A program made the position numbers and the translations under genes. A stretch of 62,986 nucleotides of DNA from Poseidonia sp. (GTDB taxonomy: Archaea; Thermoplasmatota; Poseidoniia; Poseidoniales; Poseidoniaceae): assembly GCA_030827365.1 (NCBI GenBank), contig JAUREO010000004.1:1-62986 (forward strand), given 5' to 3'. Positions 14,003 to 25,234 of this stretch are shown piece after piece. The notes under the pieces are model-generated. The model did no database searches and had not been told where the DNA came from. It saw nothing but the letters and a program-made list of their open reading frames with translations. Within the stretch, counting starts at the first letter, position 1, and the number at the start of each line of letters is the position of its first letter.

Positions 14003-15289
14003 GTGAACACCTTCCCATCGGATGTGCATATTGCCATCGTTGCGGGGGAATATCCACCACGTTGGGGTGGGATTGGTTCAGTAGTTTACCATTTAGCACA
14101 CCATTTTGTTGACATTGGTCATGAAGTATCAATCATTACAAGAAAACACTCCTCGGCCATTCCTACCCAAGAGGGGGTAAAGGTCATTCAAGTGCCTTGG
14201 ACACCACTTCCTATGGCATTTACTCGGTCGTATGGTAGAAATGCAAAGCGTGCCCTAGTCAAACTTCACCAAAAAAGTCCCATTGATGTCATACATGCAC
14301 ATCTTCCTCTTGTTTCATGGACCAGGAGGGAGTATCGATTTTTACAGAGCAATATTGCACCAGTCGTTTCAAGCCTTCACGGTTCGTGGCTTGGAGAACG
14401 TGAAGGTATTCGTAGGGCTGCAAAAGCAAAAGAATCTGCGATTTGGCGAAACCCAAATGACACAGCGATTTGGCTTACTGCGAAATGGTACGCAAGATAC
14501 GAGCGTGCTGGAATTTTGGAATCCGCAATGTGCGTTGCAAATTCTCAATCCACAAAAAGAGAATTTGAACATTGGTATCGTCCTGCACCCACATTTTCAT
14601 GCGAAGTCGTGCTTTGGGGCTGCGACCACTTGTTTTTCAGGCCACCGAACATAGACCATGAAGAAGAGCAACAGCGGCATGAAACGATACGTGAATTTTA
14701 CAAATGTGGTGACGAAGATGCACTTTCATATTTACCGACCACCCAAACCCCGATGCTTCTCGCTGTTGGAAGACTGGTTGCAAGGAAAGGATACATGACA
14801 CTGCTGCGGGCGATGCCCGAAATCCTTCGTGAGCACCCCCATGCTGTTCTTGTTATCGTGGGGCGAGGCCACATGAAAACCTCACTTCAAAAAGAAGCTA
14901 AAAAATTAGGAATTGAGTCGTCCATCAACATTCAAAGTTCATTATCATTTCAAGACTTAGCACAGCATTTTCGATCTGCAGACCTTGTCATTTATCCATC
15001 ATACTATGAAGGACAAGGTTTGATTCCACTCGAATCCTTGGCGAGTGGAACGCCAGTTGTCACTGTGGACCAACCACCGCTTACAGAAATGATTGATACG
15101 AGCGTTGGAGGATTATTTGAAATGGGCAATCCTGATGATTTAGCACGCATAGTTTGCTCCACATTATCGAATCATGAACGAGGGATACAGGCCCAAAAAG
15201 GACGTCAACGAATTCTTGAAAACTATACTTATGAACACAATGCTGAAGCATTTGAGAAGATCTTTGAAAAAGTAATCTCTAGTTCTTAA
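14003..15289 (+). CDS. Glycosyltransferase family 4 (GT-B fold)
   Basis: EYPPRWGGIG, DVIHAH, VGRLVARKG, PSYYEGQGLIPLESLASGTPVV motifs. Confidence 0.94.
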   Translation: MNTFPSDVHIAIVAGEYPPRWGGIGSVVYHLAHHFVDIGHEVSIITRKHSSAIPTQEGVKVIQVPWTPLPMAFTRSYGRNAKRALVKLHQKSPIDVIHAHLPLVSWTRREYRFLQSNIAPVVSSLHGSWLGEREGIRRAAKAKESAIWRNPNDTAIWLTAKWYARYERAGILESAMCVANSQSTKREFEHWYRPAPTFSCEVVLWGCDHLFFRPPNIDHEEEQQRHETIREFYKCGDEDALSYLPTTQTPMLLAVGRLVARKGYMTLLRAMPEILREHPHAVLVIVGRGHMKTSLQKEAKKLGIESSINIQSSLSFQDLAQHFRSADLVIYPSYYEGQGLIPLESLASGTPVVTVDQPPLTEMIDTSVGGLFEMGNPDDLARIVCSTLSNHERGIQAQKGRQRILENYTYEHNAEAFEKIFEKVISSS

Positions 15290-16287
15290 GAAGCGGGCTG
15301 TAAAAATCGTGCTCTTAACTTAAGATAGTGAATTCGCACCCACAACCTAAGTTTTTTTCGAAGGGATATACCTAGTCTAGTTGAGAATATATCACCGGAC
15401 CGTCGAAGAACTTCTTCAAAAATTTGAACATAGGCATCCATCATAATTTGAGGTTGGATACGCGCTCTTGGTTCAAGAAAGTCAAAGAGGTGTTGTGCTG
15501 ACTCTTGGTGGCGGCGAACGATATCTAAGTATTCGAGAATGAATGCCTTCCAATTTTGCATTTTTGCGAGTTTTGGGTTGTGTAAATCTTTTACATCGAT
15601 GTTATACTCGGCAAGCACACCTACAGGCAGATAAATTCGACCTCGCTCGAGATCCTCATTGACATCACGAAGGACATTGATGAGTTGCATTTGGATGCCA
15701 AGGTCAATAGCATGCAATCGTGCTGATCTGTCTTCATATCCATAAATTTCAATGAGCACTAAACCTACGGCTGAGGCAACTTTGTAGCAATATGCTCGAA
15801 GTTCATCCCAGGTGTTGCATTGCACATGAAAGAGGTCATCTTCCATGCCTTCGAGGATGGTTTCAAAGTCTTGAAGGCGAATTGGGTATTTCGCAAAGAC
15901 ATCCTGAATGGCGATGAATACAGGATGTGCACCTTGAGTAATTTCTTGCTTACTTGCTTTGATGAGATGTTGTCGAATAAAAACGAGAGCCATAAGCCTC
16001 GAAAAATGAGTTTGTTCATCATGGGCTGGAGCTTTACCAGCATGGATAGATCGAATGATTTGGTCTCGTTTTTTGGTATCAAGCAAAAGTTGCTCATCAG
16101 CGTGAATCGAAACTTCTTCGTCACCATCAACGATGTCGTCAACCCAACGGCAGAGCGCATATACGGCATGAACAGCTTTTCTCTTTTCGTTTTCCAAGGC
16201 TGAAAAAGAGGAGTAGAATGTAGTTGAGGCATTCCTACAGACCAATTCACAATGTGCATACGCTCGGTCAAGTTCAATTTGTTTCAT
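15286..16287 (-). CDS. crtB: Phytoene/squalene synthase family protein (CrtB-like)
   Basis: FYSSF...VYALCRWVDDIVD (first DDxxD), YCYKVASAVG, QLINVLRDVNED...GRIYLP; directly downstream of crtI. Confidence 0.9.
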   Translation of the reverse strand: MKQIELDRAYAHCELVCRNASTTFYSSFSALENEKRKAVHAVYALCRWVDDIVDGDEEVSIHADEQLLLDTKKRDQIIRSIHAGKAPAHDEQTHFSRLMALVFIRQHLIKASKQEITQGAHPVFIAIQDVFAKYPIRLQDFETILEGMEDDLFHVQCNTWDELRAYCYKVASAVGLVLIEIYGYEDRSARLHAIDLGIQMQLINVLRDVNEDLERGRIYLPVGVLAEYNIDVKDLHNPKLAKMQNWKAFILEYLDIVRRHQESAQHLFDFLEPRARIQPQIMMDAYVQIFEEVLRRSGDIFSTRLGISLRKKLRLWVRIHYLKLRARFLQPAS

Positions 16288-16296
16288 ATGTTCCCC

Positions 16297-23829: not shown

Positions 23830-23842
23830 CGAAGGTGAGATT

Positions 23843-25234
23843 ATGCCAACTTTCGTCCATGAAGCAACATTTCCTCACGCTCGAGAGGAAGTTTGGAACT
23901 GGTATGATGGCTATGGGGCCTTCTTGAGAATAATGCCCGAATGGGAAGGCTTGAAACCCGTCCAAATTGGCGCACTTAAAGATGGTGAAGAAACCAAATT
24001 CCGAATTAAATTAGGTCCTCTGCGACCAATGTGGATTGCCCGACATCATCATGTTCGAAAAGGAGAGTCATTTTCAGATTTAATGGTCAAAGGACCATTT
24101 GGAAAATGGGACCATGTCCACGGCTTCCATGCACTTTCAAAATCTGAATCAAAGGTCATCGATTCTATAGAATGGAAACTTCCATTCCATTTATTTACGG
24201 GTTGGACTTCATTTATCACTGTAGCACCAAGACTGAAAAAGATGTTCAGATTTCGCACGGATAGAACTGCGAATGATGTAGCCGCAATTTCAAAAACATA
24301 CCACCTTCCAAGGAAGAAAATTTTGGTTACAGGTTCAACCGGTTTGATTGGAACTCAATTGTGTGCGTTTCTCGAATGCGCAGGTCATGAAGTGTATCGA
24401 CTCGTAAGGCCTTCGACAAAGTTACCAAAGACGGTTCGAAAAACTCATGTTATTCAATGGAACGAGACGACTGGGGAAATTCTTGAGGGTGATCTCAATG
24501 GATTTGATACCGTTATTCATCTCGCAGGGGCTGGAATTGGTGATAAACGCTGGTCAAAAAAACGTAAAGCAATCGTACGCACAAGTAGAGTGGATACGAC
24601 AAAGAAATTGTGTGAAGTTCTTTCAAAACTGTCATTACCTCCACAACAGTTCTTGTGCGGCTCCGCGATTGGGTATTACGGCAATAGAGGCACTGAAAGA
24701 TTGACAGAATCCTCAACAATTGGTGATGGATTCCTTCCGGATTTGTGCAATGAATGGGAACAATCCACTCGTCCGCTTCATGATACGAACGTAAAGATTG
24801 TTTTTTTGCGAACAGGACTCGTTATGACGCCAATGGGTGGCATCATGAAACGACTTTTATTGCCTGCAAAATTTGGGGCTTTAGGTCCAGTAGGAAGTGG
24901 CAAGCAAATGCAGTCATGGATATCTCTTGACGACGAAATATATGCTATCCATCATTTGATGATGGATTCGACTTCCGAAGGTCCTTACAACCTCACTGCA
25001 CCGTTGCCAGTTTCACAAAAAGAATTTGCCAAAGTTCTTGGTCGTGTGTTAAGAAGGCCAGCTTTTGCCCCGCTTCCTGGTTTTGTGATCAAAATGGTGT
25101 TTGGAGAAATGGGTAAACAGTTGGTATTAGAAGGTCAAGAAGTCTATCCAGAAAGGTTGGTTGAAAGTGGATTCGAATTTACCCACACAACACTTGAATC
25201 CTGCTTTAGGCATTGTTTGGGGATGCAGAAATAA
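23843..25234 (+). CDS. SRPBCC/START-like domain fused to a TIGR01777-family NAD-dependent epimerase (SDR, DUF1731 C-terminus)
   Basis: N-terminal WIARH..F.D.MVKGPFGKWDHVH; then VTGSTGLIG, VIHLAGAGIGDKRW, SAIGYYG, QMQSWISLDD, GPYNLTAP. Confidence 0.92.
   Translation: MPTFVHEATFPHAREEVWNWYDGYGAFLRIMPEWEGLKPVQIGALKDGEETKFRIKLGPLRPMWIARHHHVRKGESFSDLMVKGPFGKWDHVHGFHALSKSESKVIDSIEWKLPFHLFTGWTSFITVAPRLKKMFRFRTDRTANDVAAISKTYHLPRKKILVTGSTGLIGTQLCAFLECAGHEVYRLVRPSTKLPKTVRKTHVIQWNETTGEILEGDLNGFDTVIHLAGAGIGDKRWSKKRKAIVRTSRVDTTKKLCEVLSKLSLPPQQFLCGSAIGYYGNRGTERLTESSTIGDGFLPDLCNEWEQSTRPLHDTNVKIVFLRTGLVMTPMGGIMKRLLLPAKFGALGPVGSGKQMQSWISLDDEIYAIHHLMMDSTSEGPYNLTAPLPVSQKEFAKVLGRVLRRPAFAPLPGFVIKMVFGEMGKQLVLEGQEVYPERLVESGFEFTHTTLESCFRHCLGMQK

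Follow-up and report, generated by a model that had tools for sequence, protein, structure and literature searches.

An order-wide gene cluster of Poseidoniales as a candidate sunlight-stress regulon with an embedded TrmB-family regulator

How might an archaeon of the surface ocean place carotenoid synthesis, flavin supply and DNA photorepair under common control when none of the familiar photosensors is encoded beside them? The question is raised by nine genes on two divergent arms, at positions 15,286 to 25,234 of a 62,986-nucleotide stretch of DNA from Poseidonia sp. (GenBank assembly GCA_030827365.1, contig JAUREO010000004.1); this whole stretch is called the window here. Marine Group II (MGII), the order Poseidoniales, is an abundant and uncultured group of surface-ocean archaea, and we know of nothing established about its light-responsive gene regulation. 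The reading favored here, held with about even confidence, is that the locus is the local copy of a sunlight and photo-oxidative-stress regulon that extends across the order and is most likely run by the TrmB-family protein encoded within it. This reading was reached in silico from gene identities, synteny, phyletic co-occurrence, a promoter box that reaches unlinked genes and the domain architecture of the regulator.

Gene order and distribution of the cluster

A preliminary description of this DNA, drawn from the sequence alone, had proposed a light-stress regulon with an unconventional regulator inside it. Synteny, phyletic distribution and a shared cis-element support that proposal, and they lend no support to the three-component sensing circuit attached to it. 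All nine genes, with their gaps and overlaps, were reproduced exactly from the coordinates of the open reading frames (ORFs), and profile searches with Pfam and NCBIfam upheld the family assignments. The genome is 88% complete, and 39 ORFs of the window were scanned with domain profiles. The cluster and its control region are made up as follows.

15286..16287, minus strand: crtB-type phytoene/squalene-synthase family gene, 333 amino acids (PF00494, SQS_PSY, 1.9e-59)
16297..17916, minus strand: crtI phytoene desaturase family gene (TIGR02734, crtI_fam, 476 bits, cut-off 238)
17913..19208, minus strand: ABC1/UbiB-family atypical kinase, 431 amino acids (PF03109, 2.2e-39, 135 bits)
19250..20650, minus strand: TrmB-family regulator with a cysteine-free V4R/H-NOX-like C-terminal domain (TrmB/V4R), 466 amino acids (PF01978, 1.7e-08; MsvR V4R part, 6.5e-07)
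20651..21115, minus strand: peroxiredoxin-fold (Prx-like) protein with an altered active site (PF00578, AhpC-TSA, 1.6e-26, 93 bits)
21134..21733, minus strand: ribA, GTP cyclohydrolase II (GTP_cyclohydro2, 3.8e-59; TIGR00505, 229 bits, cut-off 206)
21734..21826, no strand: divergent control region with two opposed TATA boxes and mirrored boxes
21812..22333, plus strand: Nudix hydrolase (PF00293, NUDIX, 7e-24)
22330..23829, plus strand: class II cyclobutane-dimer (CPD) photolyase (TIGR00591, phr2, 353 bits, below the cut-off of 550)
23843..25234, plus strand: SDR39U1/TIGR01777 oxidoreductase with an N-terminal extension (TIGR01777, 307 bits, cut-off 207)

Spacing is tight on both arms. On the minus strand, ribA is followed after 18 bp by the Prx-like gene, whose stop codon abuts the start codon of the regulator (0 bp); ABC1 comes 41 bp further on, crtI overlaps it by 4 nt, and crtB follows after 9 bp. 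On the plus strand, Nudix and photolyase overlap by 4 nt, and 13 bp separate photolyase from the TIGR01777 gene.

This arrangement is kept across the order. Among 151 species-level genomes of Poseidoniales, an orthologue of the regulator, defined by at least 49% identity, is present in 101, and a paralogue of 30–38% identity is found elsewhere. The window proteins were mapped onto 26 orthologue loci fetched from two Poseidoniales families and about 17 genera. The conserved core has ribA, Prx-like and TrmB/V4R reading one way and (Nudix), photolyase and SDR39U1 fusion reading the other. The Prx–regulator pair occurs in 26/26 loci, ribA precedes it in 24 and photolyase with SDR39U1 is divergent from it in 24. 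The exceptions are one truncated contig without ribA, photolyase and SDR39U1, one locus without ribA, and one genome (G077) with a rhodopsin gene in place of the photolyase arm. Downstream of the regulator the order is looser, with ABC1 in 22, crtI in 17 and crtB in 15 of the 26 loci; where the ABC1 and crt genes are missing, a separate ABC1–crtB(–crtI) unit is found elsewhere. Nudix is mostly confined to the family of the window, and few Thalassarchaeaceae loci have it. In the first published MGII genome, the cluster genes carry neighboring locus tags, MG2_1590–1599 (PMC9723583 supplement).

The cluster is also tied to a light-exposed lifestyle by joint presence and absence. Regulator and photolyase occur together in 96 of the 151 genomes and are both missing from 49, with 5 genomes having only the regulator and 1 only the photolyase. 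For regulator and rhodopsin the counts are 90 with both, 49 with neither, 11 with only the regulator and 1 with only the rhodopsin, and most exceptions in these tables are fragmentary contigs. The 49 genomes without regulator, photolyase and rhodopsin are spread over several genera that include carriers, so the set was lost jointly and repeatedly. Every Poseidoniales genus with proteorhodopsin was reported to encode photolyase as well (Rinke et al., PMC6461757), and MGII of the deep sea to be without proteorhodopsin (Tully, PMC6336850). We found no published mention of the regulator as a member of this co-distributed set. Searches of the literature on TrmB plus V4R and on MGII diel photolyase turned up no account of this cluster, nor did we find its box or its regulator described in print. 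Added here are the 151-genome co-occurrence table, unlinked members including rhodopsin, extra box-bearing genes, the exclusion of TFB and CarH, and a cysteine-bearing paralogue of the regulator.

The divergent control region and the shared promoter box

The preliminary description placed two TATA boxes in one 78-bp gap between the arms. Both are present and opposed, and the spacing of the plus-strand one is wrong for the annotated Nudix ATG. On the ribA side there is a minus-strand TATA box (21755–21762) with an AGAC box at 21768–21771; on the Nudix side, an AAAC box at 21789–21792 precedes a plus-strand TATA box (21798–21805), with a 17-nt spacer between the two boxes. The plus-strand TATA box stands just 6 nt ahead of ATG 21812, which is too near, whereas ATG 21827 is 21 nt past it, a TATA-to-start spacing equal to that of the ribA, ABC1 and crtI promoters. 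The true Nudix start is therefore most likely ATG 21827, and the divergent gap is then 93 bp.

The mirrored layout is kept across the order, with two outward TATA boxes and AAAC 5 or 6 nt upstream of each in the intergenic alignment. Between the divergent TATA boxes the sequence reads CTGTTT-N16-18-AAACAG. Eleven loci have a box-to-box spacer of 16–18 nt; in two more it measures 29 or 40 nt, an excess of 11 or 22 nt, which keeps the helical phase. In the closest fetched relative (L008, G022:C1) the divergent control region, at locus positions 11500–11860, is a run of N.

A box of the form G-N5-AAAC-N5-TATA is shared by the cluster promoters, about 23 nt ahead of the start codon. Besides those of the divergent region, two further boxes lie in the window cluster.

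17931..17946, minus strand: crtI promoter box AAAC-ccgac-TTTAAAA, within the 3' coding end of ABC1 (read from the sequence)
19230..19246, minus strand: ABC1 promoter box AAAC-ggaga-TTCAAATA, 21 nt ahead of ATG 19208

The box stands ahead of crtI in 11 loci, be it in intergenic sequence or not, and is found at 14/17 ABC1 promoters, most of which have a TATA-to-start distance of about 23 nt. It marks displaced crtB and crtI copies as well as lineage-specific insertions into the cluster, namely a YbgA-like DUF523/DUF1722 gene, Fpg/Nei, DUF1295, cupredoxin and rhodopsin. In the window, crtI probably begins at ATG 17907, which lies 9 nt downstream from the GTG overlapping the stop codon of ABC1, and the 4-nt translational coupling with ABC1 may not be the only way in which crtI is expressed.

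Counted as A(A/T)AC-N4-7-TATA, and only for genes with an upstream gap, the module occurs at 44/65 cluster promoters and at 9/158 other promoters of the same loci, with a nominal p of 1e-21 that is overstated, as the loci are related. A G six bases upstream of AAAC, which the search pattern did not demand, is found in 73% of sites. Across the window genome, AAAC stands at the box offset in about 12 of 217 promoter-like sites (about 5%), and there is no marked peak among all TATA-like hexamers; the box was rejected on these grounds as a general promoter or TFB-recognition element (BRE) feature of this genome.

The box also finds members that lie far from the cluster. Two complete relatives were scanned with AAACANNNNWTNATA, using the reversed pattern as the control; one (G003) gave 13 matches against 1 for the control and the other (G027) 12 against 4. 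In G027, six of the 12 matches lie 23–25 nt before ribA, photolyase, a cupredoxin gene beside SDR39U1, ABC1, crtB and rhodopsin, with ABC1–crtB 195 kb from the regulator and rhodopsin more than 1 Mb away. The recovery of these unlinked genes is the strongest evidence that the box is a regulon marker and not a by-product of local sequence conservation. Among 23 rhodopsin genes, 11 have the module at the right distance in their promoters. A few unrelated genes also bear the box (a subtilase, a PKD protein and an ABC ATPase).

The window genome has about seven further box-bearing promoters, belonging to an EVE-domain protein, an HTH_10-like protein, a PP-loop enzyme, TFB, RpoL and two unknowns, and none of these extra genes is clearly light-related. 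The HTH_10-like protein (218 amino acids, contig C10:38788–39444) has a C-terminal stretch that resembles the Bat-type HTH_10 by eye, and its box lies 50 nt upstream of the start. One of the two TFB paralogues (contig C109:1194–2201; G003:C1:1572923–1572937) has AAAC-N6-TTTATA upstream both in the window genome (G000) and in G003. The box-bearing TFB paralogue, the one of the two that was profiled, was rejected as the specific factor, being present in 136/151 genomes, including those without the cluster.

Carotenoids, rhodopsin and the candidate regulator

Could the cluster serve phototrophy more than protection? Of the alternatives this one survives best, although we consider it doubtful: the carotenoid arm would mainly feed the chromophore precursor of proteorhodopsin, making the cluster a phototrophy plus repair module and not a stress regulon. 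The joint distribution of regulator and rhodopsin fits it, as do the boxes at rhodopsin promoters and the rhodopsin gene that replaces the photolyase arm in G077, and crtI and crtD have been read as retinal synthesis genes (PMC9723583). Against it, neither a CarR-type lycopene cyclase nor a Blh/Brp dioxygenase was found in the genome, in searches with weak controls; PF15461, TIGR03753 and TIGR03462 gave no matches there while the control genomes barely responded, and the lycopene-cyclase search with PF05834 returned weak matches only. Most MGII are without an annotated beta-carotene 15,15'-monooxygenase (PMC6336850), and photolyase, Fpg, the Prx-like protein and DUF1295 have repair or stress functions. 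The cluster carotenoid may be an acyclic pigment, with chromophore supply as a live alternative. Its chain length may be C40 or C30, as judged from crtB, for which all equivalog models in NCBIfam score below their cut-offs.

The genome has other carotenoid-type genes. A crtB paralogue, 35% identical, is on contig C105, where positions 1140–3353 hold a second SQS/PSY-family gene pair, 35% and 23% identical to the cluster crtB. The pair is probably the match of a separate crtB/FDFT/crtD cluster that includes a desaturase significantly depleted in the dark (PMC9723583). This dark-depleted 'crtD' belongs to that different crt cluster and was rejected as a member of the cluster described here.

Returning to the reading of a stress regulon, the TrmB/V4R protein is the obvious candidate for its regulator and probably controls the cluster genes. 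No other DNA-binding gene lies inside the cluster in any of the 26 loci. The winged helix of the protein matches PF01978 at 34.6 bits (cut-off 25.6) over residues 7–68, and residues 335–444 align to the V4R region of the NCBIfam MsvR model at 6.5e-07, with 29 bits against a cut-off of 220. Sources label its homologues 'TrmB family transcriptional regulator [Poseidonia sp.]' and, in the case of the Joint Genome Institute (JGI), 'TrmB/predicted hydrocarbon binding protein'. A full-length structural model has a mean predicted local distance difference test score (pLDDT) of 74, with a helix at residues 72–98 and an alpha/beta domain at 119–270. Foldseek matched it to TrmBL2 (5BPD, 5e-13) and TrmB (3QPH, 6e-11) over the winged helix, the long coiled-coil helix and the PLD-like lobe, and to the PLD-fold proteins Nuc and NucT at 1e-7.

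The C-terminal 167 residues (300–466), modeled alone, gave a pLDDT of 80 and a predicted TM-score (pTM) of 0.76, with the order alpha-alpha-beta-beta-alpha-beta-beta. Foldseek matched this model to BcsD (2e-4), TRAPP Bet3/Trs31 (2e-3) and H-NOX and YslB (2e-2), with TM-scores of 0.4–0.5, a set that we take to be the structural neighborhood of V4R domains. The region does not match the sugar-binding C-terminal beta lobe of the Pyrococcus TrmB type. Pfam V4R (PF02830) gave no match in the regulator even at E = 5, and the regulator profile found nothing for the C-terminal domain among Protein Data Bank (PDB) sequences. Residues 300–466 contain no cysteine, and no cysteine is invariant anywhere across 19 regulator orthologues. 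Invariant Arg, Gln, Glu, Trp and Tyr residues of the C-terminal domain may form a pocket that accepts an anionic or amphipathic ligand.

The paralogue of the regulator differs in these respects. In the loci examined (L032–L041, e.g., L032:9234–10610) the protein, 30–38% identical, keeps four cysteines in its V4R-like domain. It adjoins an IscA/HesB-like gene in 9–10 of 10 loci and often FdhD-like and molybdopterin-oxidoreductase genes and a large TPR protein. It is possibly an Fe–S or redox-sensing sister regulator, and the two proteins probably read different signals.

The preliminary description had joined the regulator, a degenerate peroxiredoxin and a UbiB kinase into one sensing circuit. 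The degeneracy of the peroxiredoxin was borne out. In its active site, FYSRHGSPTCKRGC and KSSF take the place of the FYPxxxTPGCxxxxC and RxTF of BCP-type enzymes. The protein has S-RHG-S-PT-C, with CKRGC (CxxxC, not CxxxxC) and KSSF for RxTF, and the peroxidatic Cys is retained. SPTCKRGC, KSSF and YDWLFRPR are found in all 27 Prx-like orthologues, while P, CxxxxC and R are intact in the canonical BCP copies encoded elsewhere in the genome. Of solved structures, the BCPs 5ENU and 3DRN come closest to the Prx-like protein. Constant juxtaposition suggests that the Prx-like protein and the regulator are a functional pair. A thiol relay from one to the other is unlikely, since the regulator has no invariant cysteine. 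The kinase too is unlikely as a sensor part: in Thalassarchaeaceae, ABC1 sits with crtB/crtI apart from the regulator, and it stays with them when unlinked. On these two counts the circuit is not supported. In some Thalassarchaeaceae (L023, L024, L026 and L028), a second, canonical BCP-type peroxiredoxin with P, CxxxxC and R intact adjoins SDR39U1 at the end of the photolyase arm.

ABC1 looks like an accessory of carotenoid or prenyl-lipid metabolism, much as the ABC1K proteins of plastoglobules and COQ8 would suggest. The window protein scores 171 bits with TIGR01982 (cut-off 488), and a role in quinone synthesis is not implied because the UbiB equivalog models score below their cut-offs.

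A second alternative is that the cluster is co-regulated by a factor encoded elsewhere, such as a CryB/FeS-BCP-type protein acting through a partner, a rhodopsin put to sensory use or another DNA-binding protein, leaving TrmB/V4R with a narrower role, e.g., feedback from isoprenoid or flavin intermediates. The genome does encode a DPRP/COG3046 cryptochrome/photolyase-family protein of the CryB/FeS-BCP type (544 amino acids, contig C34:40094–41728, outside the window), a possible light input, and in the first MGII genome the DPRP tag MG2_1590 is next to the cluster tags MG2_1592–1599. V4R/H-NOX-like domains bind metabolites and not light, and CrtR of Corynebacterium, a winged-helix repressor, gives light-dependent crt expression without a chromophore domain (PMC6739363). 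We nevertheless judge control from elsewhere unlikely: in the window genome the DPRP gene is unlinked to the cluster, no other regulator was found linked to it, and TrmB/V4R, besides its constant place there, tracks photolyase almost perfectly. About 3 kb downstream of the DPRP gene there is an IcmF-like B12-dependent mutase fusion (C34:44575–47988).

Conventional photosensors were sought as well. The 39 window ORFs that were scanned contain no PAS/LOV, BLUF, B12-binding or Bat-type domain, in agreement with the preliminary description, which had noted no CarH/LitR, LOV, BLUF or Bat protein. No CarH-like protein (MerR helix-turn-helix plus B12-binding domain) was found in the 88%-complete genome. 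Control by CarH/LitR was rejected, as the only B12-binding matches are all of other kinds (MCM small subunit, IcmF-like fusion and MetH).

The weakest alternative, and quite an improbable one, is that the box is a lineage-specific promoter-strength or BRE-like element read by TFB/TBP, in a mere functional neighborhood of genes with similar strong promoters: its place 5 nt upstream of TATA adjoining the BRE position, the single promoters with no partner half-site, the two TFB paralogues, one with a similar box, and the few unrelated box-bearing genes favor it, but the rarity of AAAC at that offset, the excess at cluster promoters over others and the occurrence of the box-bearing TFB in cluster-less genomes tell against it.

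The remaining gene products add detail to the cluster. A second ribA, 54% identical, is on contig C68, and the copy at 21134–21733 is an extra, cluster-specific one. Residues 4–495 of the photolyase align to the Methanosarcina mazei class II photolyases 2XRY and 8OET at 1e-68 and to the rice enzyme 3UMV at 2e-56. The TIGR01777 protein had been described as an SRPBCC–epimerase fusion. Its TIGR01777 core stands, with PF08338 (DUF1731, 63 bits) at the tail; residues 1–158 have a weak SRPBCC match in Pfam (PF03364, E = 0.096), and residues 10–462 align to the fused Corynebacterium protein 3OH8 at 7e-60. The extension is probably SRPBCC, judging from these alignments.

Around the cluster, a UvrC excinuclease gene (3771–5498, minus strand) lies 10 kb upstream, with no promoter box seen there, and is followed on the plus strand by a 744-amino-acid protein (5542–7776) with a PadR-like helix-turn-helix and weak matches to N-terminal modules of STAND NTPases. 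Two giant surface-type proteins flank the cluster, both on the plus strand: one of 1588 amino acids with beta-helix and PKD domains (8380–13146) and one of 2133 amino acids with FG-GAP repeats (25889–32290). An EF-hand/zinc-ribbon protein (32337–33920) comes after the latter.

Proposed working of the regulon and known systems

How would such a regulon work? The genes would form three or four transcription units, ribA–Prx–regulator, ABC1(–crtI–crtB), crtI–crtB and Nudix–photolyase–SDR39U1, which are probably leaderless, each starting about 23 nt past a TATA box preceded by the shared box. The winged helix of TrmB/V4R would bind the box, and at the divergent promoter a dimer would span the two inverted boxes 16–18 bp apart. 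The V4R/H-NOX-like domain, which has no cysteine, would take up a small molecule, hydrophobic or anionic, present at a level that reflects exposure to light. Binding of the box, the sign of regulation, the ligand and induction by light are what we infer; we lean to activation because the box sits just upstream of BRE/TATA. Among the products, the class II photolyase would repair cyclobutane dimers, and extra RibA would raise the supply of flavin and deazaflavin precursors for photolyase cofactors. CrtB and CrtI would make an acyclic carotenoid, together with the prenyl-lipid-linked ABC1 kinase, and the Prx-like protein, SDR39U1 fusion and Nudix would add redox- or lipid-protecting functions.

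Several observations weigh against a stress regulon run by this protein. The box has little specific sequence (AAAC and a single G), it touches the BRE position, so a basal-factor preference is possible, and single promoters show no clear second half-site, an unusual situation for TrmB proteins, which are dimeric. The ribA-side box of the window is degenerate (AGAC), and the rhodopsin promoter of the window genome carries no box. The V4R assignment rests on a sub-threshold sequence match and TM-scores of 0.4–0.5. The genomes compared are related, so Fisher values overstate their independence. In the one set of dark incubations found (PMC9723583 supplement), the orthologous crtI fell (log2 fold change –2.4, p 0.049, adjusted 0.21); crtB showed no significant shift, the in-cluster ribA stayed level (+0.33), and the remaining cluster genes had too few reads.

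A bolder version would make the TrmB/V4R fusion a new class of archaeal light-stress sensor-regulator, with a chromophore or light-made molecule in an H-NOX-like pocket, itself a photoreceptor or a direct reader of photo-oxidative damage that switches on a regulon including proteorhodopsin. We regard this as a long shot; the pocket might take a photoproduct of flavin or deazaflavin, an isoprenoid related to carotenoids or retinal, or a tetrapyrrole.

The pairing of a conserved cis-element with a candidate regulator reduces the question to one protein and one 93-bp DNA fragment, which can be tested without culture, and the box-bearing genes offer a marker set for reading diel and depth metatranscriptomes. 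Shared control of the extra ribA and the class II photolyase suggests that the UV-repair response includes the supply of cofactors. Confirmation of the regulator would give nonhalophilic archaea their first described light- or photo-oxidative-stress regulon, and the V4R/H-NOX-like fold a new use.

Known systems resemble the cluster in parts. Its gene content overlaps with that of bacterial light and singlet-oxygen regulons, namely the CarH/LitR regulons (Myxococcus, Thermus, Bacillus and Pseudomonas) and the sigma-E/ChrR regulon of Rhodobacter, in photolyase, TIGR01777/SDR39U1 (here probably with SRPBCC), crt genes, DUF1295, YbgA-like DUF523/DUF1722 and enzymes for flavin or pterin precursors. 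These bacterial regulons, too, have divergent promoters and a dedicated regulator whose gene lies at the cluster. Unlike them, the Poseidoniales cluster has no MerR/B12 protein, anti-sigma pair or LOV domain; it has archaeal TATA promoters, is probably leaderless, and has a TrmB/V4R fusion as its candidate regulator. Among archaeal regulators, TrmB, TrmBL1/Tgr and TrmBL2 of Thermococcales and TrmB of Halobacterium have the same PF01978 winged helix, long coiled-coil helix and PLD-like effector lobe. The window regulator differs in having a V4R/H-NOX-like domain for the C-terminal sugar-binding lobe, in having no sugar genes nearby and in an element that is not a TGM-type palindrome. MsvR of methanogens is also an archaeal helix-turn-helix plus V4R regulator at a divergent promoter of oxidative-stress genes, but the window protein falls far short of the MsvR cut-off, has another type of helix-turn-helix and is without the V4R cysteines of MsvR-type proteins.

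Two further systems join carotenoid genes to light. CrtR of Corynebacterium glutamicum is a winged-helix regulator at a divergent crt promoter that gives light-dependent carotenoid synthesis without a recognizable photoreceptor domain (PMC6739363); unlike the window regulator, it is bacterial, belongs to the MarR family, controls crt genes only and has no V4R domain. The Bat/Brz bop regulon of Halobacterium is archaeal and joins a rhodopsin gene and carotenoid genes under a shared upstream element, as appears to be the case in Poseidoniales, where the upstream element and the regulator family are different and no Bat (GAF/PAS plus HTH_10) is encoded at the cluster.

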